Source of the DNA: an uncultured Actinomycetes bacterium
GTDB lineage: Bacteria > Actinomycetota > Coriobacteriia > Anaerosomatales > CAWKMJ01
NCBI GenBank assembly: GCA_963850695.1
Contig: CAWKMJ010000002.1
Span: forward strand, 78,810 to 142,809
Direction of reading: 5' to 3'
Length of the DNA: 64,000 nucleotides
Each line of letters begins with the position of its first letter. The first letter of the stretch is position 1. Below the pieces are notes generated by a model that searched no databases, had not been told where the DNA came from, and saw only the letters and a program-made list of their open reading frames with translations. Both the position numbers and the translations under genes were made by a program. This document shows positions 1 through 56,539 of this stretch, one piece after another.

Positions 1-1596
1 GGGTAGAGGAAGCCGGCACCCACGCTGGCGCGAATGTCTCTGATGGGTAGCCTCCAGCCGGTCGGTCGACCCTTGAGGGCGGGGTCGTGTGAGAGCGAGA
101 GGTGTGTCTTGGCCATGCAGATCGGCAGGTCAGAGTAGCCGAGTCTCGTGTAGAGCTCGATCTTCGCCTCGGCTGCGGGCAGATAGTCCACGCCGTCGGC
201 TCCGTAGATCTCGTGTGGCGATGGCCTCGATCTTCTCCTTGATGGAGGCCTCGTCGGGGTAGAGGAACTTGAACTCCTTGGGCATCTCGCATGCCTTCAC
301 GACCGCCTCGGCGAGGTCGGCTCCACCTGCGCCACCATCGGCGTGGACCTTGTGGGTCACGGCGAAGTCAGCGCCTGCAGCGAGTGCCTTCTCCTTGATG
401 AAGTCGTGCTCGGCCTCTGTGTCGGTGGGGAAGTGGTTGACCACCGCCACGACCGGGATGCCGTAGCTCTTCATGTTCTCGACGTGTTTTTCGAGGTTGC
501 AGATGCCCTCGGCCAGGCTCTCGAGGTCCTCTCTCTGGAGGCGCTCGTCCAGGGGCTTGCCCGGTCGGACTTCGAACTTGCCCGAGTGGGCTTTGAGCGC
601 GCGAACCGTCGCCACGACCACGACGCAGTCGGGCTGGAGTCCTGATGCGCGGCACTTGAGGTCGAGGAACTTCTCGGCACCCATGTCTGCGCCGAAGCCC
701 GATTCCGTCACGACGTAGTCGGCCAGCTTGAGGGCGATCTTGTCGGAGATGATCGAGTTGTTGCCTTGAGCGATGTTGGCGAAGGGCCCGGCGTGCACGA
801 ACACGGGGCCACCCTCGAGGTTCTGCATGAGGTTGGGCTTGATTGCGTCCTTCATGAGCACGGCCATCGCGCCGGCGCACTTGAGGTCCTCGGCGGTCAC
901 GGGCTCACCCGAGTTGTTGGTGCCGATGACGATGCGACCGAGGCGCTTGCGCATGTCTTGGAGATCGGTCGCCATGGCGAGCACGGCCATGACCTCGCTT
1001 GCCACAGTGATGTCGAAGCCCGTTTCGCGCGGGACGCCGTCCAGCTTGGAGCCGAGACCGACGATCGTGTTGCGCAGCGCGCGGTCGTTGAGGTCGACGA
1101 CACGTCGCCACGTTACCGAGTGGGGGTCGATATCCAGGTCGTTGCCCTGGTAGATGTGGTTGTCGATGTAGGCGGCGAGCAGGTTGTTGGCGATGCTCAC
1201 TGCGTGGACGTCGCCTGTCAGGTGCAGGTTGAAGTCCTCCATCGGGATGACCTGTGAGTACCCACCTCCGGCAGCACCGCCCTTGATGCCGAACACCGGC
1301 CCCAGGGAGGGCTGGCGGATGCACGTGATGACGCTCTTGCCGATGTGCTGGAGGGCTTGGCCCAGTCCCACGGTCGTGACCGTCTTCCCTTCGCCCAGCG
1401 GCGTCGGGTTGACCGCGGTCACGTCGACATAGCGGCCCTGGGGTCTGTCGGCGAACTCATCGAGCACCTCGAGCGAGACCTTGGCCTTGTAGGGGCCGTA
1501 GAGCTCGAGGTGGTCGGCGGAGATGCCGATGGCCTCAGCCACGTCGGCGATGGGCCTGAGCGGGGCTTCCTGAGCTATCTGGAGATCCGACTTCAT
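1..1596 (-). CDS. fhs: Formate--tetrahydrofolate ligase; 3' end runs off the window; one apparent frame change near 205-215
   Basis: ORF 130..1767(-) read from [21 protein letters not shown] (ATG at 1596). Collinear FTHFS hallmarks [42 protein letters not shown]. The C-terminal continuation [44 protein letters not shown] is readable in another minus frame at 1..210. Confidence 0.92.
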
Positions 1597-1869
1597 CGAT
1601 GATGCCCTTCCCTGTGACTGACGATAGCGTTCACCACGGACTACCGTGTGGGGGGGTTGATAGCAGGCGGCCCCGCTTACCGGGGAGTCACACGAGCATA
1701 CGTCCTCATACCCACTGAACAACCTACGTGCCGATGAATGGCGACCCCGCTCGGCCAGCGGAGGCATACGTACCGCGAATGAATGGAAATAGATGTCAGC
1801 GGATGCGGTCTCGAGCCATGTGGCCTAGGCTTGTCCCAGATGGGGAGGCTTCATGTCTGGCCGAGGAAG

Positions 1870-8987: not shown

Positions 8988-9904
8988 GTGAGGGTATCGG
9001 TCCGCGTTCCGGCGTCCTCGGCCAATCTCGGTCCCGGCTACGACTCGTTCGGGCTCGCACTCGCTCTGCATAGCTGCTTCTCGGCCGAGGAGGCCGATGA
9101 CTGGTCTGTCGAAATCGCGGGCGAGGGTGCTGAGACGCTCGCTCGAGACGAGGACAACCAGGTCGTACGAGCGATGAGCCGGGTGTTCGCTGAGGCAGGG
9201 GAGCCCGATCGGCGCGCACACATCGAGTGCGTGAACGAGATTCCGTTCGGTCAGGGTCTTGGGTCATCGGCATCGGCGATCGTCGGCGGCATGCTGCTGG
9301 CAGATGCCGTGTGCGACTCGCCGGTTCGGTCGCGAGAGGCTGTTCGAGATGGCCTCCGAGATGGAGGGCCACCCGGACAACGTGGCCGCGGCCCTGCTCG
9401 GCGGGATGACCGTCTCATGGACGAGCGACCGGCCCCGTTGCGCTTCTGTTGGGCCCGCGTGCGGTCTCGCGGTCGTGTTCGTTCTTGCAGACGAGCCGCT
9501 TGCCACGCCGGACTCGCGCCACCTTCTGCCCAGCGAGGTTCCGCATGCCGATGCGGCCCGCAACTCGGCTTGGAGCGGTGTTCTCGTCGCGGGCATGTCG
9601 CTTGGCGCGCCCCGATCTGATCGCACAAGGTCTGCACGACTGCATTCACGAGCCCTACCGTGCCGAGGCCGTTCCCGATTTGCGTGAGGTCCGGGACGCG
9701 CTGATAGGCGCCGGTGCGCTGGGTGCGGTCCTATCCGGTGCCGGACCCGCAGTCATCGGCCTGGTCCACGGCGAGGGCGATGCAGCTGCCCTCGAGGCTG
9801 CACGCGAGGTGGCCGAGAATGCCGGGACTGCGCTCGCCGGTCTCGAGGGCCGCTCCCTGCCGCAGGCATGCGGCATCGAGCGTCACGCGCCCGTGGCGGG
9901 CTGA
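8988..9904 (+). CDS. thrB: Homoserine kinase, two frame changes
   Basis: GTG 8988, 8 nt after the hom stop. VPASSANLGPGYDSFG, IPFGQGLGSSASAIVGG (GHMP motif), EGHPDNVAAALLGG, VLSGAGPAV. Confidence 0.88.
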
Positions 9905-10030
9905 GGCCCGCAACTGCTGCATCCGAGTCGGTCGTCGAGCGGTTGACCAGCCGCGACCTCGTCGTGGATGATGTGACCATCCCATCTGTCGCGCGCGCAG
10001 CCACGCGCACCCCTCAAGCGGAGGAATCCC

Positions 10031-11039
10031 ATGGACACCAACGACAGCACGCAAGGGCAGGGAGTCCCGCCCGCATCGCAGCCCGAGTCGCACCCCTCGC
10101 CGCCAGTCGGCCAGTACGCCCCTCAGCCCTACCCTCCGGCCCCGCCGGCAAAGAAGCGATCCGGCGGATGGTGGGTGGCGATAGCCATCTTCGTGCTGCT
10201 GCTCATCCTGCTGTTCTCGTGTTGCGGGCTGTCGGTGTACGCGATGAGTCTGCCGATGGCTTCGACCACGACACCGACGTTCGGCGAGACCATCGCCATC
10301 ATCCACGTGGACGGGATCATCGCTGGTACAGGCAGTTCGATCAACGGGATCGTGAGTCCCGAGGAGTTCCTCTACAAGCTCGACCAGGCCGAGGCGGACC
10401 CCAACGTCAAGGCGGTGCTTCTGCGGGTCGACTCTCCGGGCGGCACAGTTGCCGCTTCGCAAGAGATCGCCATGGAGCTGGAGCGATTCGGCAAGCCGGT
10501 CGTGGTGAGCAGCGCTGACGTCAACGCATCGGGCGCCTACATGATCTCGTCGCAGTGCGATGAGATCTGGGCCCTGCCGACGACGGCGGTCGGCAGCATC
10601 GGCGTCATCACACAGATCCCCAACGTCTCGGGGCTTCTGGACAAGGTCGGCATCGAATTCACGACGGTCACCGCCGGCGAGTACAAGGACGCCGGCAGCA
10701 TGTACCGCAGCATCACCCCCAGCGAGACAGCGCATGCTCCAGCAGGAGGTCGACATCGCCTACGACGAGTTCATCAGGATGGTGGCCGAGGGAAGAGACC
10801 TGCCCGAGGACGATGTCCGTGAGATGGCGACGGGCTGGGCATGGTCAGGCATCGAAGCTCAGGAGATGGGTCTTGTCGATGAGCTGGGTACATACAATGA
10901 TGCACTGGATGCCGCCGCCGACCTCGGCGGAATCGACGGCTCCTACGACACCGTGACCTACGACCAGGTCGACTTCAGCGACTTCATCTACAGCATCATC
11001 GGCATCGAGAGCCAGCTCGAGCGGCTGAGCTCGCTCTGA
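10031..11039 (+). CDS. sppA: Signal peptide peptidase SppA (36K type), one frame change near 10730
   Basis: ATG 10031 after GGAGGA. Pro-rich N-terminus plus TM. LLRVDSPGGTVAASQEI, SSADVNASGAYMISS, VTAGEYKDAGS, SGIEAQEMGLVDELG. Confidence 0.85.
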
Positions 11040-11105
11040 TCCGGAAGGCGCGACGCAGGGCCCGGCGGTTCCCCGCTAGGCGCCTGCGGCCGTCAGGAGG
11101 GTACC

Positions 11106-11904
11106 GTGGGCGACGACAACACGACCGTCATAGCGCACATCTCAGACCTTCACTGCGGGTCGCGCTATCACATCCCGAGTCTTGCCACGCGCGTCATCGA
11201 CGAGCTCAACGAGCTTGCACCCGATATCGTCGTCGTCACCGGCGACTTGACGGACATGGGCTTTCGCCAGGAGTTCAAGCAGGCGCACCGGCTGCTCTCG
11301 AAGCTCGACTGCCGAGCGTCAGCTGGTCCTCATGGGCAACCACGACGCGCGCAACGTGGGTGAGGTGCACTTCTCTGAGCTCTTCGGCGCGCGCACGACC
11401 GAGCTGAGATACAGGGGCGTCCGCATCCTCGGCATCGACTCGAGCGAGCCAGACCTCGACTCGGGTCGGGTCGGCCGCGAGCGGCACAGGTGGATAGAGG
11501 AGTCGCTTCGCCGATCCAGAGGAGTTCTCCGTTCTTGCGATGCACCACCATCTGGTGCCGGTTCCCGGTACCGGTCGCGAGCGCAACATCGTCTACGATG
11601 CCGGAGACATGCTCCAGGTGCTGGCCAGCTGCGGGACGGACCTGGTCCTGTGCGGTCACAAGCACGTTCCCAACGTCTGGCGGCTCGAGGACATGCTCAT
11701 CGTCAACGCCGGCACGGCGTGCTCTCACCGTCTGCGTGGTCGCGTGCGCCCCTGCTACAACATCATCGAGATCATCGACAACAACCGCGTGCGCGTCATC
11801 CGCAAGGAGCCGTACACCGACGGCGAGATCGTCGCGGACTACCGCGGCATACACCGTCGCTACTGCAGCTGGCGGCCCGAGGGCGAGGACCGCACGGTCG
11901 ATGA
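11106..11904 (+). CDS. Calcineurin-like metallophosphoesterase; two frame changes; 3' end uncertain (somewhere between 11870 and 12010)
   Basis: GTG 11106 after AGGAGGG. Motif series HISDLHCG, VVVTGDLTD, MGNHDARN, AMHHHLVP, LCGHKHVPNV. Confidence 0.8.
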
Positions 11905-12011
11905 TTTCGACGCGTGTCTCGGCGGGCAGACAGTCGCGGGGAGCGATGATGCGGTCGACGACGGTGTGTCGGCCAACATCTCGCTCGGCGAACCACGGGG
12001 GAGGTTCCGCG

Positions 12012-13372
12012 GTGAGTCGAGTGGTCGCCCTCATCGACGGCGAGCACTACCCTCCGGTCGTGCGGTTCGCTCTCGACGAGCTCTCGCGCCGAAGCACGAG
12101 GTCGTGGCGGCGGCGTTCCTCGGCGGGACCGAGAAGGTGGATCTCGAGGCCGGGCTCGACACGTATGGCGTGCCGGTCATCGCCGCCGAGAGCGGTGCCG
12201 AGGCGCTCGCCTCGGCGCTCGAGCAGTACTCACCGGATGCGGTCGTGGACCTCTCCGATGAGCCCGTGGTCTCCTCGGCAGACCGCTTCCGGCTGGCGAG
12301 CCTCGCGCTCGCTGCAGGCGTCGGCGTACCGCGGTGCGGACTTCGAGTTCACGCCGCCGAGCGTGGCAGGTCGTGACCGACGACGCCCACGCTCGGCCTC
12401 ATCGGGACCGGCAAGCGCGTGGGCAAGACCGCCGTGTCGGGCTACGTCGCGCGTACGCTCACCGGGCTCGGACACGACATCGTCGTGCTTGCGATGGGTC
12501 GCGGGGGGCCGGCCGAGCCGGAGCTCATCCACGGCGAGCAGGTGAGACTGACCACACCTGACCTTCTCGAACTCGCGTCGCAGGGGATTCACGCATCGTC
12601 TGACAACTACGAGGACGCGGTCATGAGCCGCGTGACTACGGTGGGCTGTCGGCGCTGTGGCGGCGGGATGGCGGGCGAGACGTTCTTCAGCAACGTGCCC
12701 GAGGGGGCGCGGCTGGCCGATTCGCTCGGCAAGGAGCTGCTCGTGCTCGAAGGGTAGCGGCTCGGCGATCCCGCCGGTGCACTGCGGATGCGAACATCCT
12801 CGTCATCGGAGCGGGCAGGGGAGTCGAGTATGTCGAACGGCTACTTCGGTCCGTACCGGCTCTCGCGAGCCGACCTCGTGATCATCGCGACTGCCGAGGA
12901 GCCGGTCGCGACCGCCGACGCAGATCGAGGAGATCCGCGCAGCGGTCGCTCGCCAGCGCCCCGACGTACCGTGCATCGCCACGACGTTTCGGCCGTACGC
13001 CGATCGAGCCCGTCGCGGGCAAGCGGGTGTTCTTCGCGACCACCGCTCCCGAGGAGGTCGTCCCAAGCTCGCTGAGTATCTTGAGGCGCGAGCACGGCTG
13101 TGACGTCGTGGCCGCCAGTCCTCACCTGTCCAACCGCGCCCGGCTGCGCGCCGACATGCGCGCGGCAGACGGCGACTACGAGGTGCTGCTCACCGAGCTC
13201 AAGGCAGCGGCGATCGATGTCGTCGCGGCTGCGGGCGAGGAGGCAGGCGTGCCGACGGTGCTGTGCGACAACGTCCCTGTTCCTGTCGACGGTGGGCGAT
13301 CTTGAGCCGCTGGTCGAGACGGTGGCAGCCACGGCCGTCGAGCGCGGTCGCGAACGAGGAGGTGTAGCCTGA
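12012..13372 (+). CDS. cpgS: Cyclic 2,3-diphosphoglycerate synthetase homologue, about seven frame changes
   Basis: GTG 12012 after GGGGAGG. Readable as VVALIDGEHYPPVVRFALDEL / FLGGTEKVD...DLSDEPVVSSADRFRLASLALAAG / AYRGADFEF / LIGTGKRVGKTAVSGYVAR...LAMGRGGPAEPE...TVGCRRCGGGMAGE...LVLEGSGSAIPPV / FATTAPEEV...ASPHLSNRARL...LLTELKAAAIDV...CDNVPV. This motif order matches what I recall of Methanothermus fervidus CpgS. Confidence 0.75.
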
Positions 13373-14294
13373 TGCCGCAGGACAAGACGGATCATCGCTC
13401 ACCGACAAGGCGCACGGCCTGCCCTTCTCCAAGGGGCTGCTCGCGCAGTCCTTCACGGCGACCGGTCTCTCGCCGTCGCAGCGCGTCACGAGATCGCCCA
13501 GGCCATTCAGGACGACCTGCGTGAGCGCGGCGAGACCTCGCTCACGATCGCGCGGCTGCGCAGCTTGCCGAGGAGTACCTCGGCCGGATGGCGGGCGAGG
13601 AGTACGCTCGGCCGCTACATCCGCTTCTACCAGCTCTCCAAGCTCGACAACCCGCTCATCGTGCTCATCGGCGGGACGACCGGCGTGGGCAAGTCGACGA
13701 TCGCCACCGAGGTCGCTCACCGGCTCGGTATCACGCGCATCGTGTCGACGGATTCCATTCGCGAGGTCATGCGTGGTATCTTTACCAAGGACCTCATGCC
13801 CGCGATCTACGAAAGTGCGTTCAACGCGTGGCGAGGTCTCCGAGTCCCGGTACCGCACGGTGCCAACCCCGTCATCGTCGGATTCCGCGAGCAGACTGCT
13901 GTCGTGACGACAGGGGTCAAGGCGCTGATCGACCGTTCGGTGCTCGAGGGCGACAGCCTCGTGCTGGAGGGGGTCCATCTCGTTCCGGGCTATCTCGAAC
14001 CACGCCAGTTCAAGAACGCCCGGGTCGTGCAACTTGTCATCACGGTCGAGGACGAGGACAGCCATCGCTCGCCACTTCTACATCCGCGAGGTGCAGACCG
14101 ACGGCATGCGCCCGTTCGAGAGGTACCGGGCCAACTTCGGCAACATCCGACTGCTGGGTCACTACATCGAGGATCTGGCGCGCGAGCACGGGACCAAGGT
14201 CATCCCGAGCCACCAGCTGGACCTCACCGTCTCCGACGTGCTGGAGCACGTCGTGGATTCCGTGATCGAGACGGACGCACAGACGCCGAGCTAG
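13372..14294 (+). CDS. pgk2: 2-phosphoglycerate kinase homologue, about four frame changes
   Basis: ATG 13372 overlaps the cpgS stop (TGATG). N-terminal ATP-cone-like part LPFSKGLLAQS...IAQAIQDDLRERGETSLTI. P-loop LIVLIGGTTGVGKSTIATEVAHRLGI, TRIVSTDSIREVMRG, LVLEGVHLVPGYL. Tail HFYIREVQTDGMRPFERY... Confidence 0.75.
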
Positions 14295-14347
14295 AGCGAA
14301 GCGTCCGACCTTCTCGCTCGCGCCAGCGGGCGTGGGCACATAGACAG

Positions 14348-14367
14348 GCACCTGCGGCCGCAGGTGC
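14348..14367 (+). terminator. Perfect 8-bp hairpin GCACCTGC-GGCC-GCAGGTGC between pgk2 and tal (no U-tract)
   Basis: Palindrome read directly, 54 nt after the pgk2 stop and 20 nt before the tal ATG. Confidence 0.35.
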
Positions 14368-14386
14368 GAATACGTAGAAAGCGAGT

Positions 14387-15057
14387 ATGCAAGTGAAGTT
14401 CTTTCTGGATACAGCGAACATCGAGGAGATCGAGGAGGCCGCGAGCTGGGGCGTGATCTCCGGCGTCACGACCAACCCGACGCTGTACGCTCGCGAGGGC
14501 GGCAAGCTTGCCGACTTCCACGACCACATCAAGCGCATCTGCGAGATCGTCGACGGTCCGGTCTCGGCCGAGACGGTCGACTCTCGACGCGCGACGAGAT
14601 CGTCGCCGAGGGCGAGGTGCTGGCGGACATCCACCCCAACGTCGTGGTCAAGGTGCCGACGATGCCCGAGGGCCTTGCTGCGACCAAGGCCCTCTTCGAC
14701 AAGGGCATCAAGGTCAACATGACGCTGTGCTTCACCGTCCCGCAGGCCATCATGGCGGCGCGTTCCGGCGCAGCGTACATCTCGCCGTTCATCGGTCGAT
14801 TCGATGACATCTCCGAGGATGGCATCGCTCATCTGGCCAACGTGGTCACAGCCATCAACAACTACGACTTCGGTCACGAGGTCGAGATCATCGCCGCCTC
14901 GGTACGGCATCCCGAGCATGTCCTTCAGTCGGCGCTGATCGGCGCCGATATCGCCACCGTCCCCATGGGGGTCCTCGAGAAGTGCGTGAAGCACCCGCTC
15001 ACCGACCGCGGGCTCGAATCGTTCCTCGCCGACTGGGAGAAGGTCAAGAACTCATGA
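14387..15057 (+). CDS. tal: Short-type transaldolase / fructose-6-phosphate aldolase family, one frame change near 14580
   Basis: [36 protein letters not shown] (Schiff-base Lys context), [18 protein letters not shown]. Confidence 0.88.
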
Positions 15058-16428
15058 GCGCACGTCAACGCAAGCGTGGTCGTCGTGGCGGCAGCGGTGG
15101 AGGCGGCGGAGGCGGCGGCGGCGGCAAGGAGCCCGCAGCCGTCGGTGAAGCGCGAGGAGCTTCGAGGCCCTCAAGGTGACCGAGCTCAAGGAGATGGCCG
15201 CCGAGCTCGGGGTCGACGTCGAAGAACCTCAAGAAGGACGAGCTCGTCACCGCCGTGTTCGAGGCCAAGATGGCTGCCGAGGGATTCGTCGAGATCGAGG
15301 GCATCCTCGACGTCCTGCCCGAGGGCTACGGCTTCATCCGGACCGAGCGGCTACCTGCCGGGCGACAAGGACGTCTACTGCTCGATGTCGCAGATACGAC
15401 GCTTCGAGCTGCGTCGCGGCGACATGGTCAACGGGCACCGTCCGTCCGCCCAAGGACAACGAGAAGTACCCGGCGCTGCTCAGGGTCAACGCCGTCAACG
15501 GCATGGACGCCGAGCGAGGCGCAAGGTCGCGTCCGCGCTTCAAGGACCTCACCCCGATCTTCCCCGACGAGCGGTTCCGGCTCGAGCACGGCGGAGCGTT
15601 CCTGACCGCGCGCGTCATCGACCTGGTCGCGCCCATCGGCAAGGGACAGCGTGGCCTCATCGTCTCCCCGCCCAAGGCGGGCAAGACGACCGTCCTCAAG
15701 GACATCGCCGCAGCCATCAGCGCGAACAACCCCGAGGCCTACCTCATGTGCCTGCTCGTCGATGAGCGGCCCGAGGAAGTCACGGACATGGAGCGCTCGA
15801 TCCACGGCGAGGTCGTGTCGCTCGACCTTCGACATGCCGAGCGAGAACCACATCGCCGTGGCCGAGCTTGTCATGGAGCGGGCCAAGCGTCTCGTCGAGA
15901 GCGGACTACGACGTCGTGATCCTGCTCGACTCGATCACCCGTCTCGCTCGCGCCTACAACCTCGCGACACCGGCCTCGGGCCGCATCCTGTCCGGTGGCG
16001 TCGACTCGACGGCGCTCTACCCGCCCAAGCGGTTCTTCGGTGCGGCGCGCAACATCGAGTTCGGCGGCTCGCTGACGATCCTGGCGACCGCCCTGGTCGA
16101 CACCGGGTCCAAGATGGACGAGGTCATCTTCGAGGAGTTCAAGGGCACCGGCAACATGGAGCTGCGACTCGACCGCGGCATGGCCGATCGCCGCATCTTC
16201 CCGGCGATCGACATCATCACGTCGGGCACGCGCAAGGAAGAGCTGCTCCTCGATCGCGAGGAGGCACCGTTCGTCTGGGGCGTGCGCCGGATCCTCCACG
16301 GCGTCGACTCGCCCGAGCGCGCGCTCGACATGCTCATCAAGGGCCTGAAGCAGACCAACTCGAATCAGGAGTTCCTGGTACGCATGGCCAAGAACGTCGA
16401 CGAGAAGCGCAACGGCATCGACCTGTAG
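15054..16428 (+). CDS. rho: Transcription termination factor Rho with Arg/Gly-rich N-terminal extension, about six frame changes
   Basis: ATG 15054 overlaps the tal stop (ATGA). [15 protein letters not shown] (Rho_N), [36 protein letters not shown] (Walker A), [53 protein letters not shown]. Confidence 0.92.
15087..15125 (+). repeat. GGC/GGN triplet run encoding [13 protein letters not shown] in the Rho N-terminus
   Basis: ggc ggc agc ggt gga ggc ggc gga ggc ggc ggc ggc ggc, in frame with ATG 15054. Confidence 0.9.
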
Positions 16429-16501
16429 CAGCGGTGTCAGAGCGAACGTGCCGGTCGCAGGCCCGCGCAGGCGAGATTCCTCTGCACCGTCCCAGGACGC
16501 G

Positions 16502-16510
16502 TGCTATCAT
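16502..16510 (+). promoter_or_regulatory. Candidate extended -10 element TGcTATCAT upstream of rpmE
   Basis: 62 nt upstream of GTG 16572. Member of the recurring TGnTAnnAT set. Confidence 0.35.
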
Positions 16511-16571
16511 CTGCAGGCTTGTCTCCGCGCCTGCTTGGAAACCAGGCGCAAACGACGGAGGTGTTCGGTCA

Positions 16572-17152
16572 GTGAAACAGGGAATCCACCCCGAGTACAG
16601 TGAGACCACGGTGGTGTGTTCCTGCGGCTCGACCTTCACGACGAGGTCGACGGCGGGCGGCGAGCTCCACCTCGAGCTGTGCTCTCAGTGCCACCCGTTC
16701 TACACGGGTACGCAGAAGCTCGTCGACTCCGGTGGTCGCGTGCAGCGCTTCTCCGACAAGTTCGGCGATGCTGCGCAACGCGGTCCTGGAGAAGGAAGCT
16801 GCTGCGAAGGAAGAGCGCGTCCAGAGGGACGCCGAGATCGCCGAGGCGGCCCGCAAGGCTCGCGAAGAGCGTGAGGCCGAGAAGGCCAAGCGTCAGGCAG
16901 AAGCCGAGCGCGAGAAGTCTCGCAAGTCCCGGAAGAACGAGGCCTCGCCGAGGCTGAGGCTCGAGCCGAAGAGGCCGCCGTGCCGAGGAAGCCGTCGCAG
17001 AGGCCGTCGTCGAAGAGGCCGTCGAAGAGGCTGTCATCGAGGAGGCCGTCGCAGAGGCTGTCGTCGAAGAGGCTGTCGCTGAGGAAGCTGCCGAGGCCGT
17101 TGCCGACGAGGAAGCCCCCGCTGAGGAGGCTACCGAGGAGAGCGCCGAGTAA
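16572..17152 (+). CDS. rpmE: 50S ribosomal protein L31 core (to about 16775) followed by a ~125-aa Lys/Glu/Ala-rich then acidic (EEAV)n tail; either a fusion or a separate overlapping ORF
   Basis: GTG 16572. [26 protein letters not shown]...[30 protein letters not shown]. No stop in the L31 frame nearby. Coding-type GC3 continues in shifted frames as [47 protein letters not shown]... [21 protein letters not shown]...EESAE stop 17150..17152. Confidence 0.8.
16982..17100 (+). repeat. In-frame tandem repeat (period 54 nt = 18 aa) built of GAGGCCGTCG-like units encoding (E/A)EAV repeats
   Basis: GCCGTCGCAGAGGC(C/T)GTCGTCGAAGAGGC(C/T)GTCG occurs at 16991 and again at 17045. Confidence 0.8.
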
Positions 17153-42984: not shown

Positions 42985-44211
42985 CTAGCTCTCGCTCGCC
43001 GCATCTTCTAGCACGCCGAGGACGCGCGCGGCCATGTCGTCGCGGCCGAACTCGCGCTCGGCCAGGGCGCGGGCGTTGTCACCCATGCGTCGCAGCGCCT
43101 CGGGGTCATCGGCCAGCGCGACGATCGCATCCGCGAGCGCCTCACCGTCGCCCGGTGGCACGTAGACACCAGCGTCGTTGTCCTCGATCAGATCCTTGGT
43201 CCAGCCAGGGGAGTTGACGAGCATCGGCTTGCCGGTCGCGATCCCGTCGAAGAGCTTGTTGGGTGAGTTCGTGTAGAGGATCTCGACGTCCTTGAACAGC
43301 GTCATGAGCATGTCCGCGCTCCGCAGCAGCCGTGGGATCTCCTTCTTGGGGAGAGGGCCGATGAGATCGAGGTTGTCGAGGCCCCGCTCGTCACGCATGC
43401 GCTCGATCTGCGGCAGGGACTTCCCGTCACCCGCGATGAGGAAGACGATGTCGTCTCGGCCACGCTCTTTGAGGATGCGTGCGGCCTGGGGCACGGAGTC
43501 CTCGAGAGCGTTCGAGGGACCGATGGCGCCAGCGTAGCCCACGACGAACTTGCCCTCGAGCCCGAAGCGCTCGACGAGCTCCGGGTCCTTGGGGCCCGGG
43601 GCGAACAGCTCGAGATCGCACGAGTTGGGGACCATGTGCGTGCGCTCGGGGTCGCCGCCGTCGGCTAGGACGCCCGTGACCATGCCGGGGGAGAGCGCGA
43701 TCACAGCCGAGGCATGCCGATAGAGGAAGCGCTCGACTCGCTTGGCCACACGCGCGATGAAGCTGCCGCGCTTGAGAGCCCCCATCTGTATCGCCGCCTC
43801 AGGCCACAGATCGCGGACCTCGAAGACGAAGGGCAGTCTGCGCAGTGCGGCTGTGATCCAGCCGGGGACTCCGACCGTGAGCGGTGTGGAAGTCGCGAAG
43901 ACGACATCGGGGCGCGGGGCTCTGAGACCGAGGTACGCCGCGCCGAGCATGAACAGCGAGAAGGACCAGATGCGGCGAGCGTAGCCCATGTAGTTCGAGT
44001 ACGTGACCCGGACGGCCCGGACATCGATGCCGTCGACGGTACCGTAGTTGAAGACGTGCTCGGAGAACTCGTCGGTGAGCCGGGAGCTGCTCGTCACGAT
44101 CGTGACCTGGTGACCCTGTTCCACCCAGCGGCGAGAGAACTCGTATGAACGGATGAGTCCCAGCGACGACTCATGGGTGGCGAAGAACTGATGGAAGTAG
44201 AGGATTCTCAC
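42985..44211 (-). CDS. GT4-family glycosyltransferase (intact 408 aa)
   Basis: MRILYFHQFF...; N-terminal GT4 acceptor domain and C-terminal donor domain with LIAGDGK, NSPNKLFDGIATGKPML (E/K-x7-E-type region). Confidence 0.85.
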   Translation of the reverse strand: MRILYFHQFFATHESSLGLIRSYEFSRRWVEQGHQVTIVTSSSRLTDEFSEHVFNYGTVDGIDVRAVRVTYSNYMGYARRIWSFSLFMLGAAYLGLRAPRPDVVFATSTPLTVGVPGWITAALRRLPFVFEVRDLWPEAAIQMGALKRGSFIARVAKRVERFLYRHASAVIALSPGMVTGVLADGGDPERTHMVPNSCDLELFAPGPKDPELVERFGLEGKFVVGYAGAIGPSNALEDSVPQAARILKERGRDDIVFLIAGDGKSLPQIERMRDERGLDNLDLIGPLPKKEIPRLLRSADMLMTLFKDVEILYTNSPNKLFDGIATGKPMLVNSPGWTKDLIEDNDAGVYVPPGDGEALADAIVALADDPEALRRMGDNARALAEREFGRDDMAARVLGVLEDAASES

Positions 44212-44408
44212 GCGGTCGGGGTCTCCCAGCCGATGCGTCGTGCCTGGCAGTGATATGCGTCACACATCTCGTGCGCAAACATGCCGAATTCTACCATTGA
44301 GACGCACGTGGGGGCGTGTGCCGTGTGGCGCTCTACCCACTTCCCGGCGTGTCTTGTCCGGATGACTCAGCGGTGGCCTGCGGGAGGCCTGAGACAGGAG
44401 GGTTCGCC

Positions 44409-46184
44409 ATGGATAGACCTGGGGGTTCCACGCACGGCAGATCGGCGAGGGGGTTCGCACTTCTTCTCGTAATCATCTTGCTCGCTCTCGCGCTTCCGGT
44501 GTCCGCGGTCGGCACGGAGCCTGCGACGGTCACGCCGTACAACATCTCCGGCACGGTCGTCACCGACGACGCGAGTTCCACGCCGATTCCCGACATCAAG
44601 GTGAAGCTGTACTACGACAGCACGATCGTCGGCGGGGATCCGTCCTACATCTACACCTACACCGATGACGCTGGAGAGTGGGGTTTCGCCGACCTCGACG
44701 CCGGCAACTACGTCGTCTACTTCTACGACCCCAACTACAAGGACGGGGCCTACAAGAACGAGTACTACGACGACAAGGATGACTACGCGACCGCCGACCG
44801 CGTTGCATACGACGGCGGTACCAACGTGACCGGCGTCGATGCCGCGCTCACCGAGCTTCGGCGGGCCGTTGAAGGAACGGTCAAGTCCGAAGGTGGCGAA
44901 GGCATCAAGGACATGAAGGTCAAGCTCTACAAGTACACCGGCGGCACGACCGGTGACGCCTCCGTGCAGTGTGTCGGTTGGAGTGAGGTACAGGGTGCCT
45001 ACACCGACGCAAGCGGCTGGTATGCGTTCTACGGTGAGGAAGCCGGTCTCTATCGTGTGGGCGCCTACGACCCGAGGGACAATCACTACACCAAGTTCTA
45101 CGATGAGAAGCCCACACTCGATGATGCCACCGACATCTCCTACGATGGCACAGCCACCGTCTCGGGGATCGACCTGGCGCTCGAGCTCAAGACCAAAGAG
45201 GTCTGGGACAAGGACCGCTACACGACCGCGATCGACATCGCGCGCGAGGCCTACCCAGGCTGGCACGGTATCGACACGATCATCATCGCCTCTGGTGAGG
45301 ATCGCGCCTCGGCAGATCCTCTCGCCGCCTCCGGGATGTGCTGGGCCTATGACGCTCCGCTGTTCCTCGTGAGCAAGGATGGCCCGCCGTATGCGGTCAA
45401 GGAAGCGATCGCCGAGATCGTCGACGTGAACGGTCCCATCGACATGATCGTCGTTGGCGGACCCAAGTCCGTGCCCGACTGGGTGGCGGACAAGATCGAG
45501 AGCTACGTGGAGGGCAAGTTCGGTGGCGCTGACGTCATCACCGGCCCCGGCGGCACCTGGCGCCGCGTCGAAGGTCAGGACCGCTATGAGGTGGCCTACA
45601 AGATCGCCGACGAGATGGCGACCTGTGGCAAGTGGATGCCCGATGATGCGCTGATCGCGAACGGCGCAGACGCGAGCAAGTTCTTCGATGCTCTCGCGCT
45701 CTCGCCCGTCGCGCGCCGCAGGGGCGCACCGGTCCTGCTCGTGAGCAAGGACAAGGTGCCCAGCTGGACATCGGCGGCGATCGACAAGCACGGACTGAAC
45801 GACCTCTGGGTCGCTGGCGGAGACAACTCCGTTGGCCCCAAGGCCAAGGCCAAGCTCGGCGAGCTTGGGACCGTTCGCGCGGTATGGGCGGGCAAGGACC
45901 GCTATGAGACCGCTCGTCTGGTCGCCGAGGGCGCGCTCGATCAGGGCTGGCTCTCCAAGGATGCCGTGGCTGTCGCAGCCAAGCTGCCGGACGCCCTCAC
46001 GGGTGGTAGCGTGGTCGGGCATCGCAACGGTGTTCTGCTGCTTGTCGAGACGGACAAGTTGCCGAATCCCACGGGTGGGTATCTGGAGAACAACAAGGCA
46101 TCCATCGATGAGTGCTACATTTTTGGTGGACCGAAGAGCGTGAGCGCCAAGACTCGCGCCGCAGTCGAAGAGAAGCTGAAGTGA
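44409..46184 (+). CDS. Secreted wall protein: signal peptide, two ~100-aa beta-sandwich repeats (carboxypeptidase-regulatory/Cna-B-like), three CWB2-type wall-binding repeats (intact)
   Basis: ATG 44409 after AGGAGGG. FALLLVIILLALALPVSAVG. ISGTVVTDD...DAGNYVVYFY and EGTVKSEGG...EAGLYRVGAY. CWB2 units DKDRYTTAIDIAREAY...[14 protein letters not shown]...YDAPLFLVS...IVVGGPKSV; GQDRYEVAYKIA...ANGADASKFFDALALSP...APVLLVS; GKDRYETARLVA...AKLPDALTGGS...GVLLLV...IFGGPKSVS. Confidence 0.8.
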   Translation: MDRPGGSTHGRSARGFALLLVIILLALALPVSAVGTEPATVTPYNISGTVVTDDASSTPIPDIKVKLYYDSTIVGGDPSYIYTYTDDAGEWGFADLDAGNYVVYFYDPNYKDGAYKNEYYDDKDDYATADRVAYDGGTNVTGVDAALTELRRAVEGTVKSEGGEGIKDMKVKLYKYTGGTTGDASVQCVGWSEVQGAYTDASGWYAFYGEEAGLYRVGAYDPRDNHYTKFYDEKPTLDDATDISYDGTATVSGIDLALELKTKEVWDKDRYTTAIDIAREAYPGWHGIDTIIIASGEDRASADPLAASGMCWAYDAPLFLVSKDGPPYAVKEAIAEIVDVNGPIDMIVVGGPKSVPDWVADKIESYVEGKFGGADVITGPGGTWRRVEGQDRYEVAYKIADEMATCGKWMPDDALIANGADASKFFDALALSPVARRRGAPVLLVSKDKVPSWTSAAIDKHGLNDLWVAGGDNSVGPKAKAKLGELGTVRAVWAGKDRYETARLVAEGALDQGWLSKDAVAVAAKLPDALTGGSVVGHRNGVLLLVETDKLPNPTGGYLENNKASIDECYIFGGPKSVSAKTRAAVEEKLK

Positions 46185-46862
46185 CCGAAGGCGAACATAC
46201 CGACGACAGAACCCAGAAGCGGGGCGCGCAGAGCGTGCCCCGCTTCATCGTGGTCCTGGGCATAGTGGGGGTCGTGGCACTCGTCGCTGCGCTCGTTGCC
46301 GTCGTCGTCATGCAGGGTACGGGCTCTACTACTCAGACGTCGGTGGATGGGGCGGCTGAAGAGAGCAGCAGTGGGCCGGGAGCAGACGACTCCGGTGGAA
46401 CCGGTGCCGCAGAGGAGACGACTGGTGTGGGTGTCGGGCCGGGCGGTCCCTCTGCCGCCGAGCTGGCTGCGCAGTCCGCAGGTGATCTCGGCGCTCCCGC
46501 TGAGCTTTGCGGCGAGGGCGTGGAGCTGCCGGTTCTCGACGCGCCGCCCCCGTCCACGCTCGGACTGGTTGCACTGCCGGCGGGCTTCGAGGTCGCCGAG
46601 CTCGATGTCACCTTCTCTCCCTACGGTTGGGGCCAAGGCGGACCGGAGGGCTGCAACCTCGTGATCACGCGTCGCCACGGCGAAGCCCGCTTCCGGCGAC
46701 ACCGAGGGCTTGGAGGACATCTCCGGCATGAACGTGAGCGTGTGGACGGAGTGCGCACACGACGAGATTCTCAAGACAGGTGGCCAGTTCGCAGGTACAG
46801 TTGAGGTGCGCCGTCAGGGCAACGTCGGGCTTCTGTACCTGACAGAACTCTCGCGCAGCTGA
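46181..46862 (+). CDS. Single-pass membrane protein of unknown function, start coupled to the upstream stop (GTGA); one frame change near 46665
   Basis: GTG 46181. TM FIVVLGIVGVVALVAALVAVVV, Gly/Ser/Glu-rich linker, small C-terminal domain ...GMNVSVWTECAHDEILKTGGQFAGTVEVRRQGNVGLLYLTELSRS. Confidence 0.55.
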
Positions 46863-46867
46863 GTCAG

Positions 46868-46907
46868 CCCCCGCACCGGTTCTTCTGGCACGGTTCGTGC
46901 GGGGTTT
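46868..46907 (+). terminator. Rho-independent-type terminator hairpin
   Basis: CCCCGCAC...GTGCGGGG (8 bp, with inner ACCG/CGGT pairing) followed by TTT, 6 nt after the stop at 46862. Confidence 0.5.
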
Positions 46908-46976
46908 CAGTCGTCACGACCTCGTACCGATGTACTAGGGGATGGAAGCACTCCTCAAAAGGAGATAGAGAGCCGT

Positions 46977-49916
46977 ATGCGCATGGTCAGATTCGCCGTT
47001 TCGCTCGCCGTGGTCGTCGCGCTCGCGGCGACGATGACTCCGCTGGTCGCAGGTGGCGCCAAGGCGCAGAACAGCGTCGAGATCGAGCGTGTTTCACAGT
47101 CCGCCACACTCGACACGCGTCTCATCAGCTTGGAGGAGCGGGCCGACCTGGCGCGAAGCGAGGGCGAGCCGCTCCTGGCCGCCACCCCATCCGAGCCTTC
47201 CGACAGCCAGCCCGACTACGTGGCTGGCGAGGTACTTGTGAAGTACCGGGACCAGGACGCGCTCTCAGCCACCGTCCAGTCGCGCCTCCACGATCGCGCA
47301 GGTGGGACTCCTGGTGAGACGGTCGGCTCCGATGCCGACCGTACAGGTCGTGGAGCTCGACGGCGACGTCTCGGTCGAGGAAGGCGTCGACGCCTACGAG
47401 GCACAGCCCGAGGTCGAGTGGGCACAGCCCAACTACCTCTACGCACTCGCCGACACCACTCCTGGCGACACGATGTTCGGCTGGCTGGATGGCCAGCACA
47501 ACATCGGGCAGACCGGCGGCACCTCGGATGCCGACATCGACACCCCGGGGGCTTGGGACCTCGAGACAGGTGACGCGAGTGTGGTCGTCGCGGTCATCGA
47601 CACGGGAATCGACCCGACGCACCCCGACCTCGTCGGGCAACATCTGGTCGAACACCGGGGAGATCCCCGACAACAGCATCGACGACGACGTCAACGGCTA
47701 CGTGGACGACACGTACGGCTGGGACTTCGTCAACGACGACAACGCGCCGCATGGACGACCACAGCCACGGCACGCATGTCGCCGGGACGATAGGGGCTGT
47801 CGGCAACGACGGGCGTGGAGTGGCAGGCGTGGCATGGGACGTCTCGATCATGCCGATCAAGGCGCTTCGACCAGAACGGGAACAAGGCCAGTTCGGCGGC
47901 GCTCGTGGACGCTATCGACTACGCGAGCGACAACGGGGCGGACGTCATCAACGCGTCGTGGGGCGACTACGGACCGGTGGACACCGCGATCCGCAGCGCG
48001 ATCGCCTCGTCGCCAGCGCTGTTCGTGGCAGCAGCCGGGCAATCAACAGCCTGGCGAACAACGACGATGCACACCCGTTCTACCCGGCCGCCTACGACCT
48101 GGACAACATCATCGCTGTCGCCGCGACCGACAACAAGGACGCTCTCGCCAGCTTCTCGAACTACGGGGCGACGACAGTCGATGTGGCGGCTCCCGGCGTG
48201 GACATCCTCAGCACGGTGCCGCGCCTCGGCTACAGCGGGCAGTCGTTGGCCGATCCCGGCTGGGGAGACATCTTCTACGATCCGTTCCCCACCCAGGGTG
48301 GTTGGGCGACGACCGACTACAAGCACAAGCCATGGTCGCTGACCTCGACCAAGCCCGGCTCGTACTCCGGAGTGCCCGCGATCGCCAACAGGAACTACTC
48401 GGCGACCGAAGAGGCCTACCTCGACCTGAAGTACCCGGTAGACCTCTCTCAGTCCTCGGCTGCTGGCATCCTCTTCGACTTGGCGGCAAGCTTGGAGCCG
48501 GGATATGACTTCCTCGTCCCGATCGCTTCTGATGATGGAGGCAGTACCTGGGACCCGATCGAGAACGTCGCGTACACCGGAAGCACCGCGTCGGTGAAGC
48601 GGCTGGCCGACAACGATCGCTTCACGACAGCGGTCAAGATAGCGCGCGAGGGATACGACCCGGCCGGCAACAAGACGTGGCCCGGCGTCGACTCTGTGAT
48701 CATCGCGTCCGGCGATGACCGCGCGGCCGCAGACCCGCTGTCGGCTGCGGGGCTGTGCTGGGCCTACGACGCCCCGCTCTTCCTCGTCTCGGCATCGACG
48801 ACACCGGTCAAAGTGAAGGCCGCGATCAAGGAGATCGCAGCCCGCAACAGCGGCAAGGTGAACGTCATCATCGTCGGAGGCACGGTGAGCGTGCCCGACG
48901 CGCGCTACAGCGACCTCGCGAACTACGTGGGATGGAGCGAGCTTGCCAGACGACGCGTGGCGGGGTCGGACCGGTACTCCACGGCCGCAGCGATCGCTCG
49001 GGAGATGAGACGCGTGAAGGGCGCGACGGACAAGGTGCTCGTCGCCAACGGAGCCGACTCCACGAAGTTCTTCGACGCGCTCGCGCTCTCGCCGATCGCG
49101 GCACGCAACGGCTATCCGATCATCCCGGTGAGCGCCACGTCGGTTCCCTCGGCGAGCAGGTCGATACTGAGCGAGTTCGACCCGAGCGAGGTCATCATCG
49201 GCGGGGGACCGGCCACGGTGAAGTCGAGCGTCAAGAGCAGCATCAAGAGCATCACCGGCGTCACACCACAGCAGTGGTACGGACCCGATCGCTACTACAC
49301 CGCGACGACGATCGCGACGAAGTCGGTGTCCCGCGGATTCCTTTCGGATCAGGCGGTCGGGATCGCAGCCAAGCTGCCCGACGCGCTGACCGGTGGAAGC
49401 ATGATCGGCGCGCAGAACGGCGTGCTGCTCATCACACAGAGCGATCGGCTGACCGGGACGACGAGCGCCTGGGTGTCCTCGCACTCATCCAAGATCGGAT
49501 CGGCCTACGTCTTTGGTGGCACGAAGAGCGTGTACCCAGCCGTCCAGAATCGAGTGACAGGGCTCGTGGCGCTCTGGGTGACTGAGTACTTGAACCTGAA
49601 GGACTACATCGGCAAGGCGAGCGTCAAGATCGCGTTCGTGCTGGTCTCAGATGAGACGGACAACTACGACGGCGTCTTCATAGACGACGTCGAGATCGTC
49701 TCCTTCGGGGGCTACGGGCTCAACAACGGGACATCCATGGCGGCACCGCATGTGGCCGGAGTGGCGGCGCTGCTCAAGTCGCGCGACGCGAGTCTCGAGG
49801 CGACTGAGACCAAGCAGGTCATCATCGATACGGTCGACACGAAGTCGAGTCTTGCTGGAAAGGTGGAATCCGGCGGACGTGTGAATGCGAACAGCGCGGT
49901 GACTGCTGTACCCTAG
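46977..49916 (+). CDS. Secreted subtilisin-family (S8) serine protease with a nested jelly-roll plus 3x CWB2 insertion between the His/Asn region and the catalytic Ser; about five frame changes confined to 47290-48060
   Basis: Signal peptide MRMVRFAVSLAVVVALAATMTPLVAGGAKA. Inhibitor-I9-like propeptide YVAGEVLVKYRD...VEWAQPNYLY. Asp VVVAVIDTGID, His DDHSHGTHVAGTIG, DVINASWG, FSNYGATTVDVAAPG, then about 490 aa (SDDGGSTWDP..., three CWB2 units, ...YDGVFIDDVEIV) before Ser NNGTSMAAPHVAGVAALL. Confidence 0.85.
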
Positions 49917-49955
49917 AGCGGAAGTCACCCGTGACGCGAGGGGGTAGATGGCAAA

Positions 49956-51648: not shown

Positions 51649-51776
51649 CCATGACCCCGGGGGTCGCTTTCCCCGTGATGACCTGAGTTACCATGGCACC
51701 TGGCCTCGCCGATACTGGAAGGCTGTCAACGGTGGTGAATCGTAGCAGTACGTCGCAGCAGTACCGCCTGAAGGCG

Positions 51777-54677: not shown

Positions 54678-54684
54678 GTGTGGA

Positions 54685-56352: not shown

Positions 56353-56471
56353 GGACCTCCTCAGTCTCGGCGCACCGCGTCGGAAGCTATTCTATTATGG
56401 TCGTTCGTGGGCGGTCGCGTCTCGTTCGCGCTGTTGCCGAGATGACACGCGGCTGCAACCTGCGACGACGT

Positions 56472-56486
56472 ACACTGTTCCAGTGT
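56472..56486. promoter_or_regulatory. Inverted repeat ACACTG-TTC-CAGTGT in the divergent wzx / GT4 intergenic region (candidate operator)
   Basis: Perfect 6-bp arms read directly, inside the 187-bp divergent region 56353..56539, which also has an AT-rich TATTAT at about 56389. Confidence 0.3.
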
Positions 56487-56539
56487 TGCGAGAGCGCGCC
56501 TTGCCGATGCGGGCGCTCGGGAACGTAGAGAGGCTCTTC

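Follow-up and report, generated by a model that had tools for sequence, protein, structure and literature searches.

Gene content of the locus

The subject of this analysis is a pair of adjacent genes, cpgS and 2pgk, found in a 64,000-nt stretch of DNA (contig CAWKMJ010000002.1, positions 78,810-142,809), hereafter the window, in whose own coordinates all positions are given. The genomes nearest to the window are metagenome-assembled genomes (MAGs) labelled Coriobacteriia or Actinomycetota. The two genes are predicted to encode both enzymes needed for the synthesis of cyclic 2,3-diphosphoglycerate (cDPG), namely cDPG synthetase (cDPGS or CpgS) and 2-phosphoglycerate kinase (2PGK), and in this actinobacterium both are apparently functional. 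The enzyme families themselves were already known, and bacterial copies have been named by annotation pipelines (NCBI, JGI). What is new is how widely cpgS is carried among bacteria, how deeply the module's place upstream of rho is conserved in Actinomycetota, and that an esterase gene recurs as its partner.

Each of the two genes is scattered over all three reading frames in the window. They were read from a frameshift-aware dynamic-programming alignment between the window DNA and an intact relative, locus L001, together with a three-frame translation of 11950-14400. The alignment placed the GTG start of cpgS at 12012 and its TGA stop at 13370-13372. The kinase gene extends from an ATG at 13372-13374 to a TAG at 14292-14294, and the TGATG junction between both genes, visible in the three-frame translation, agrees with the translational coupling proposed in the initial annotation of this DNA.

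Once corrected, CpgS matched the solved cDPGS of Methanothermus fervidus (PDB 8ORK/8ORU) with E=2e-123 in a phmmer search, query residues 3-434 pairing with residues 5-447 of the 8ORU chain, a match that spans the unique N-terminal domain as well as the P-loop core. A second solved cDPGS, PDB 9SXB, was matched with E=5e-105. Identity was 42% to 9SXB and 87% to the intact relative P0001 (Table 1 gives the value for M. fervidus). Neither the cpgS fragments nor the whole corrected protein gave a family in Pfam and NCBIfam scans, the model PF27272 (CpgS_N) being newer than the copy scanned; because the scans lacked this model, the identity of CpgS was settled by the PDB sequence search. Close relatives of CpgS do carry PF27272 as a precomputed match.

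The residues of cDPGS that bind 2,3-diphosphoglycerate (2,3-DPG), Mg2+ and ADP are E45 and K46 (from the partner subunit), K145, R146, K149, T150, D208, E305, T353, E404 and K406 (PMC10690619). All eleven, read from the alignments, are identical in the CpgS of the window; P335, named in the same paper, was not used, as there is no proline there in the deposited sequence. GTGKRVGKT (12404-12430) and SSDNYED align to the Walker A and Mg2+-ligand D208 residues of the M. fervidus enzyme, and GGTEK, AEEP, FATTAP and LTELK align residue by residue with the E45/K46, E305, T353 and E404/K406 sites. Five of these positions (window numbering K133, R134, K137, T138 and D196) show no or almost no variation across 60 diverse family members. 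The motifs listed for the synthetase in the initial annotation were all located at definite coordinates, LEGSGSAIPPV only after frame correction, since it spans a frameshift. By its sequence, cpgS is a full-length cDPG synthetase homologue in which the nucleotide, Mg2+ and substrate contacts are conserved.

The corrected kinase matched the NCBIfam model PRK04220 with 293.5 bits (E=1.9e-87) over model positions 9-296 of 306. Its two best NCBIfam models, PRK12337 (313 bits) and PRK04220 (293), are the two models for 2-phosphoglycerate kinase, followed by PRK12338 (158) and the mevalonate-3-phosphate 5-kinase model (88); a PDB sequence search returned generic P-loop matches only. Of the ATP-cone-like N-terminus that had been proposed, a sub-threshold match is left (PF03477, 14.7-16.2 bits against a cut-off of 25.8, positions 13-84 of 88), and the Thermococcus orthologue that lies beside cpgS gives a clear ATP-cone match. 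Judged from these models, the 2pgk of the window is a full-length homologue of the archaeal 2-phosphoglycerate kinase. The ArgK/MeaB and CobQ families, which had been considered as possible best homologues, did not turn out to be so, and the assignment of both genes to the cDPG families stands.

Table 1. Coordinates of the genes, junctions and motifs discussed in the text
Feature	Position	Strand	Remarks
Formate-tetrahydrofolate ligase gene	133-1824	-	intact; FTHFS, 718 bits
thrB (homoserine kinase)	8988-9904	+	frameshifted open reading frame fragments, MRVSVRVPASSANLGPGYDSFGLAL; upstream edge of backbone
sppA-like signal peptide peptidase (Peptidase_S49)	10031-11076 (end approximate)	+	85% amino acid identity to L001 SppA, 2 frameshifts
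Metallophosphoesterase (calcineurin-like)	11106-12015	+	82% identity to L001 gene; TGA stop 12013-12015
Esterase/cpgS overlap GTGA	12012-12015		esterase stop and cpgS GTG start
cpgS, cDPG synthetase homologue	12012-13372	+	about 449 aa corrected; 45% identity to M. fervidus cDPGS
CpgS motif GTGKRVGKTAVS	12404-12439
CpgS motif MGRGGPAEPE	12494-12523
CpgS motif TVGCRRCGGGM	12638-12670
CpgS motif LEGSGSAIPPV	12746-12754 (LEG), 12753-12779 (GSGSAIPPV)		two different frames
CpgS motif FATTAP	13033-13050
CpgS motif PHLSNR	13120-13137
CpgS motif LTELKAAA	13189-13212
cpgS/2pgk junction TGATG	13370-13374
2-phosphoglycerate-kinase-family gene	13372-14294	+	about 304 aa corrected; PRK04220 match; 90% identity to L001 orthologue
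Kinase P-loop GGTTGVGKST / GGTTGVGKSTIA	13670-13705
Kinase motif STDSIREVMR	13745-13774
Transaldolase / fructose-6-phosphate aldolase (TalC/Fsa type)	14387-15057	+	87% identity, 1 frameshift
tal/fsa-rho overlap ATGA	15054-15057		tal/fsa stop and rho start
rho transcription termination factor	15054-16428	+	89% identity to L001 Rho, 7 frameshifts, 0 in-frame stops; downstream edge of backbone
Glycosyltransferase and polysaccharide-export genes	42988-44259, 53445-57715		flank the CWB2 proteins
Four consecutive large proteins, three CWB2 repeats each	44301-53420	+	cell-wall-binding repeats

A metallophosphoesterase coupled to the pair

The stop codon of a metallophosphoesterase gene overlaps the GTG start of cpgS by four nucleotides. 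The alignment of this gene to L001 reaches 11941 with two frameshifts, and its C-terminal frame up to the TGA was read from the three-frame translation. The predicted unit is made up of at least three translationally coupled, co-directional genes (esterase, cpgS and 2pgk) and not of two. The same 4-nt overlap occurs in most of the 53 actinobacterial loci in which the esterase gene was recovered. The L001 orthologue matches Pfam Metallophos PF00149 with 61.5 bits (cut-off 21.5), the motifs DxH, GDxxD, GNHD and GHxH are present both in that protein and in the corrected protein of the window, and a hydropathy profile of the esterase showed no membrane segment (maximum over 19 residues about 1.1).

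Outside Actinomycetota, homologues with a tandem domain lie beside cpgS-2pgk on Cloacimonadota, Bipolaricaulota and Asgard contigs (L084 7733-9232; L085 353-1855, minus strand; L088 7367-8902). Their N-terminal halves match the actinobacterial esterase with E values of 1e-37 to 1e-40 and their C-terminal halves with 1e-21 to 1e-29. The esterase is linked to cpgS in four phyla, and the contexts outside Actinomycetota are unrelated to that of the window. A small CBS-domain protein also stands beside the module in Cloacimonadota and Bipolaricaulota, the Bipolaricaulota copy being divergently oriented. In the second domains of L084 and L085, HMSNTF, HCGG, AGRD and TGTSSH replace DxH, GD, GNHD and GHxH, and the Asgard protein keeps most of the motifs. 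The second domain of the Cloacimonadota and Bipolaricaulota proteins is probably non-catalytic.

Several loci bear on the wider esterase family. In four close Coriobacteriia-like MAGs (L003, L004, L006 and L019) the esterase has been lost and sppA is directly followed by cpgS, with the order cpgS-2pgk-tal-rho kept. A single-domain relative of 37% identity (L100 4453-8815) lies between an RNA 3'-phosphate cyclase gene and the genes for a PHO4 phosphate transporter and a PhoU-like protein, with no cpgS nearby, a context that hints at a role of the wider family in phosphate homeostasis. An exclusive linkage between esterase and cpgS was considered and rejected after a reverse metagenome scan, which shows that the family is not dedicated to cDPG. 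We know of no gene assigned to the archaeal cDPG hydrolase activity, and the coupled esterase offers a concrete candidate for the catabolic step of cDPG. The proposal that it acts as a cDPG hydrolase or as a 2,3-DPG phosphatase is tentative, and we would sooner doubt it than adopt it.

Distribution of cpgS and its neighbours

A protein search returned 7889 scored CpgS relatives, the closest of which (69-87% identity) come from metagenomes or MAGs named Coriobacteriia or Actinomycetota; several of these close relatives already bear the name '(cyclic) 2,3-diphosphoglycerate synthetase' in NCBI or JGI annotation. When one genome per species was scanned, more than 543 genomes contained a CpgS relative, and the loci of the best 80 were compared. 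These best 80 include Coriobacteriia-like MAGs at 61-77% identity, Candidatus Aquicultor, Thermoleophilia, Acidimicrobiia and Bacillota MAGs at about 48-51%, and Methanobrevibacter and Methanobacterium at 42-45%. A profile-free exhaustive search gave 1029 clusters (50% identity, E<=0.001), 230 of them with E<=1e-30. Among the named members of these clusters are Bipolaricaulota/Acetothermia, Cloacimonadota, Gaiellales, Acidimicrobiales, Thermococcus paralvinellae and Asgard archaea (Hodarchaeota, Borrarchaeum). The isolate names of many carriers, from which alone habitat was read, suggest groundwater, peat, bog, fen, palsa and gut. The 'archaeal-type' label that the genes had been given reflects where the enzyme was first studied: many bacterial phyla carry cpgS, and the neighbour-joining (NJ) tree described below does not settle the deep branching order.

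Such carriage, in well over 500 species-level genomes including many bacteria and mesophilic archaea, contrasts with the view that prevails in the literature, where papers of 2023 and 2025 describe cDPG as confined to hyperthermophilic methanogens (PMC10690619, PMC12136491). In an ancestral-reconstruction study on ammonia-oxidising archaea, losing the cDPG synthetase gene was treated as one element of the departure from a thermophilic lifestyle. In the literature available to our search we found no paper on bacterial cpgS or on cDPG measured in a bacterium, and the description of cultured OPB41 relatives makes no mention of cDPG or cpgS (PMC9686372). If bacteria make cDPG, its meaning shifts from that of a thermoprotectant towards that of a general phosphate, energy and carbon reserve, cpgS loses value as a marker of thermophily, and high-GC bacterial enzymes would become available for the production of cDPG, a commercially interesting extremolyte.

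In almost all actinobacterial loci where both were recovered, cpgS and 2pgk are adjacent or overlapping, with junctions mostly between -14 and +9 nt, and they are also adjacent on Thermococcus, Asgard, Cloacimonadota, Bipolaricaulota and Acidimicrobiales contigs. Other neighbours fit a tie between the pair and phosphoglycerate metabolism, as far as gene content can indicate. On a Bipolaricaulota contig, an iPGM gene (L082 6352-7908) overlaps the stop of cpgS; elsewhere the archaeal-type phosphoglycerate mutase gene apgM (PhosphMutase; L092 1204-2349) is found just upstream of cpgS, in the slot that the esterase occupies in other loci. Genes for another glycerate-derived solute were also seen beside cDPG genes, namely a mannosylglycerate-synthase-type glycosyltransferase gene (MGS_GT) upstream of cpgS on a Thermococcus contig (L087 3467-4609) and an MGH1-like glycoside hydrolase gene upstream of esterase-cpgS (L094 932-3139).

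Predicted pathway and its possible role

The route to cDPG leads from 2-phosphoglycerate to 2,3-DPG and from there to cDPG, at the cost of one ATP per step (PMC12136491; mechanism in PMC10690619). In the cell from which the window derives, 2PGK would convert 2-phosphoglycerate and ATP to 2,3-DPG, and cDPGS would convert 2,3-DPG and ATP to cDPG, ADP and Pi, so that the cell would make cDPG. The coupled metallophosphoesterase would take part in turnover, either by opening the cDPG ring or by dephosphorylating 2,3-DPG. Taken as a whole, we consider it probable that the two genes are cDPG-pathway homologues interrupted by error frameshifts, that they belong to an old vertical block, and that they serve a cell that makes cDPG and uses the esterase in its turnover.

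Several observations weigh against this interpretation. Neither gene is intact as given, with nine frameshifts in cpgS and five in 2pgk, and cDPG has been stated to be found only in hyperthermophilic methanogens (PMC10690619). The kinase falls below the curated equivalog cut-off of PRK04220, which is 343 bits (293.5 for the window protein and 298.9 for the intact L001 orthologue), and its family includes mevalonate-3-phosphate 5-kinase. As for the esterase, when the tandem proteins served as seeds for a scan of metagenomes, cpgS was found, in the available DNA, beside only three of about 31 strong relatives; several of the relatives' loci with full 6-kb flanks show no cpgS, and a pair made up of the CBS-domain protein and the tandem metallophosphoesterase lies without cpgS on a 908-kb contig. 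Conversely, cpgS-2pgk is kept without the esterase in seven loci (L003, L004, L006, L019, L087, L090 and L091).

A role of cDPG as a reserve of phosphate, carbon and energy and as a general anionic solute would be more attractive than that of a dedicated thermoprotectant. It is favoured because the carriers are apparently mesophilic, to judge by isolate names, and because a hydrolase-type gene is coupled to the synthesis genes. The pathway may nonetheless operate as in M. fervidus, with thermo- or osmoprotection by molar accumulation of cDPG as its main role. In hyperthermophilic methanogens cDPG reaches 0.3-1.1 M and stabilises proteins (PMC10690619), and the pair in Thermococcus adjoins the gene for another solute mentioned above. 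Its carriers, however, include Methanobrevibacter and MAGs that their isolate names place in peat, bog and groundwater; in M. thermautotrophicus cDPG is a carbon and phosphate store with a hydrolase regulated by K+ and Pi (PMC1224877); and the coupling of a hydrolase-type gene to synthesis fits turnover better than static accumulation. We regard a mainly protective role as possible, with the balance of the evidence clearly on the other side. An IVYWREL estimate of growth temperature (14 proteins, about 65 °C) was discarded, as the index fails to separate the M. fervidus CpgS from Methanobrevibacter and Methanobacterium MAG proteins.

The reserve role can be extended into a broader proposal, according to which many bacteria of the subsurface, anaerobic and for the most part mesophilic, would make cDPG (they belong to several classes of Actinomycetota, to Bipolaricaulota and to Cloacimonadota). 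In them, a cycle of synthesis and hydrolysis run by esterase, cpgS and 2pgk would buffer phosphate and energy under starvation; the esterase would be the cDPG hydrolase, and the module would have stood upstream of rho since early in the history of Actinomycetota. In this full form the proposal is speculative, and we would not expect all its parts to hold.

The proteins could also be true family members that act on a different substrate or yield a different product, such as 2,3-DPG alone or another cyclic pyrophosphate. Since the kinase family contains an enzyme for mevalonate 3-phosphate, substrate specificity can shift within it, a point to which the sub-cut-off score of the kinase adds; on the side of the synthetase, FATTAP and PHLSNR are replaced in PDB 9SXB, which means that motifs vary within the family. 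Against this stand the eleven identical contacts to 2,3-DPG, Mg2+ and ADP, including E45/K46 of the partner subunit, the tight coupling of cpgS and 2pgk in both domains of life, which argues for the same two-step route, and the phosphoglycerate mutase genes that adjoin cpgS in two lineages. Another substrate or product is thus unlikely, and synthesis of cDPG remains the favoured function of the pair.

Gene order and inheritance of the block

The genes of the region follow the order thrB, sppA, metallophosphoesterase, cpgS, 2pgk, tal/fsa, rho, rpmE, thyX, DUF1385, prfA, prmC, sua5-like, rpiB, which bears out the position between thrB and rho that had been reported for the pair. At the upstream edge, the thrB N-terminus of the window recurs in two intact relatives, L002 and L010, where thrB directly follows hom, and the window sppA was located by tblastn and protein-to-DNA alignment, the L001 sppA gene matching Pfam Peptidase_S49. 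At the downstream edge, the Rho N-terminus agrees with that of L001. With 255.7 bits, the L001 transaldolase orthologue exceeds the TIGR00875 cut-off of 245.95, and the gene is present in 52 loci. The 4-nt overlap of the tal/fsa stop with the rho start recurs in L001, and in the lineage of the window rho appears to be co-translated with this sugar-phosphate aldolase/transaldolase gene. A scan of 9700-16700 for promoters and terminators gave nothing above shuffled expectation, so that the boundaries of the transcription unit are drawn from gene spacing.

Of the 80 genome loci, about 55 have the order (sppA)-esterase-cpgS-2pgk-tal-rho, even where CpgS is only 46-50% identical to that of L001. 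In four further loci (L089 and L092-L094), with CpgS 41-44% identical, the module stands directly upstream of rho. Where the upstream side was examined (L002, L010, L089 and L093) thrB was present; in L089 and L093 a full hom-thrC-thrB run precedes the module, a GHMP_kinases_N gene occupying the thrB slot. The divergence of CpgS is mirrored in its neighbours, with Spearman correlations between its identity and theirs of 0.91 for 2PGK and for the esterase, 0.92 for DUF1385, 0.75 for the transaldolase, 0.70 for PrfA and for ThyX, and 0.65 for Rho. The tetranucleotide distance of the region lies at the 57th percentile, and its GC content (0.678 versus 0.659) at the 96th percentile of same-sized windows. 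None of the island signs that were looked for (atypical composition, absence from relatives, a tRNA gene in the window, conflict with the flanks) was found.

In an NJ tree of 90 taxa with 200 bootstraps, the window is placed beside P0001 in a Coriobacteriia-like clade with 100% support, and the Methanobacteriales form a separate clade, also with 100%. Only shallow clades are supported, and deep groupings such as 'all archaea' or 'Methanobacteriales + Asgard' reach 0-4%. Since these deep groupings are unsupported, the tree does not give the direction of any transfer between domains.

The initial annotation had taken the pair for an archaeal cDPG cassette, acquired horizontally and inserted here, that served adaptation to heat or osmotic stress. 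The characterised enzymes are indeed archaeal (PMC10690619, PMC12136491), the GC content of the region is slightly high, one match comes from a MAG, 'SpSt-1170', whose isolate name suggests a hot spring, and the related order Anaerosomatales, whose two cultured members are Anaerosoma tenue (optimum 30 °C) and Parvivirga hydrogeniphila (47-60 °C), includes a thermophile in culture (PMC9686372). To these points may be added the gene order of mycobacteria, in which, as in M. tuberculosis (Rv1296-Rv1297), thrB is directly followed by rho. Yet the same block occupies the same slot in lineages whose CpgS is only 41-47% identical, it has co-diverged with rho, prfA, thyX and DUF1385, and its tetranucleotide composition is ordinary. 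Moreover, the clade of the window and the Methanobacteriales stand apart at only about 45% identity, the bacterial clusters in the NJ sample are at least as diverse as the archaeal ones, and many carriers have isolate names suggestive of groundwater, bog, fen, palsa or gut. A recent insertion is therefore very unlikely. Because synteny is conserved, CpgS co-diverges with the flanking genes and no island signal was found, the block is, as gene order and divergence indicate, old and has been passed on vertically in several lineages of anaerobic actinobacteria. Mycobacteria and other lineages in which thrB and rho adjoin either lost the block or never had it, and an ancient transfer between domains, in either direction, is possible.

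Nature of the frameshifts

The interruptions of cpgS and 2pgk are shared by their surroundings. A tblastn search with all 14 proteins of L001 showed the genes from 10.4 to 22.9 kb to be split over frames without exception, rho, prfA, thyX and prmC among them. The density of frameshifts per kb is 6.6 in cpgS and 5.4 in 2pgk, compared with 5.1 in rho, 4.7 in prfA, 8.7 in thyX and 6.8 in DUF1385, and nearly all of them are one-base insertions. No in-frame stop was found in the corrected cpgS and 2pgk. Their amino acid identities to L001 (87% and 90%) equal those of housekeeping genes, and the ratios of nonsynonymous to synonymous substitution (dN/dS) against L001 are 0.089 for cpgS, 0.077 for 2pgk and 0.092 for the esterase, within the range of 0.06-0.11 of housekeeping genes. 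This substitution pattern indicates that cpgS and 2pgk are under purifying selection. As the density resembles that of rho, prfA and thyX, in-frame stops are absent and dN/dS is low, the frameshifts are most likely assembly indel errors and the genes no pseudogenes. The opposite reading, that both are decaying pseudogenes whose frameshifts are real, could appeal to 14 frameshifts in 2.3 kb and to an indel density so uneven that some genes (fhs, the cell-wall proteins at 44-58 kb) are intact, but it is hardly credible and was rejected, given an equal density in the essential rho, prfA, thyX and prmC, the almost exclusive occurrence of single-base insertions, the lack of stops after correction, a dN/dS of 0.08-0.09 and identities at housekeeping level.

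In a scan of the window, codon phase changed about 3-5 times per kb between about 4 and 48 kb, but only about once per kb in the stretches 1-4 kb and 48-58 kb. Intact genes, 1.3-2.3 kb long, lie at 133-1824 and from 43 to 56 kb. The uneven indel density possibly results from uneven polishing or from a consensus of mixed strains.

Other features of the window

Beyond the block, the window contains an intact gene for formate-tetrahydrofolate ligase and four consecutive large proteins with three CWB2 cell-wall-binding repeats each, whose fusion partners are a CarboxypepD_reg domain, an S8 subtilase, a YkuD L,D-transpeptidase and an Amidase_3 domain (Table 1). Anchoring by CWB2 repeats is known chiefly from Clostridia. 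On both sides, the four proteins are flanked by genes for glycosyltransferases and polysaccharide export. Rfam and tRNA scans of the whole 64-kb window found nothing.

Comparison with known systems

The closest characterised counterpart of the synthetase is the cDPGS of M. fervidus (PDB 8ORK in the apo form, 8ORU with ADP, Mg and 2,3-DPG; PMC10690619), which has the same length and two-domain layout as the CpgS of the window and the same Walker A, GTGKRxGKT. The difference lies in the host, which is bacterial in the case of the window, and in the gene, which has 68% GC. In the loci sampled from Methanobacteriales, cpgS is on its own within 8 kb, whereas that of the window is found in an operon with 2pgk and a metallophosphoesterase. 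The 436-aa cDPGS of 9SXB, which clusters in the NJ tree with the Thermococcus paralvinellae protein cluster, gives a full-length match with the same core motifs, although LVMTAP and ANLANR stand in it where the window protein has FATTAP and PHLSNR. The overlap of cpgS with 2pgk on the Thermococcus contig is 4 nt, an arrangement similar to that in the window, but no metallophosphoesterase adjoins the pair there. With the 2-phosphoglycerate kinase models (PRK04220, PRK12337) the kinase shares the P-loop, and it matches PRK04220 nearly end to end; the resemblance of its N-terminus to an ATP-cone is weak and stays below threshold.

For the esterase, the nearest solved relatives (E about 1e-9) are Rv0805, a class III cyclic-nucleotide phosphodiesterase, and GpdQ, a glycerophosphodiesterase (PDB 2HY1, 3IB7 and 2DXL). 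They share the calcineurin-like motifs DxH, GDxxD, GNHD and GHxH with the protein of the window, whose association with cpgS-2pgk is unlike the context of either. The catabolic step that the coupled esterase suggests is that of the cDPG hydrolase activity of M. thermautotrophicus (PMC1224877). That activity is membrane-bound, whereas the esterase of the window has no hydrophobic segment.

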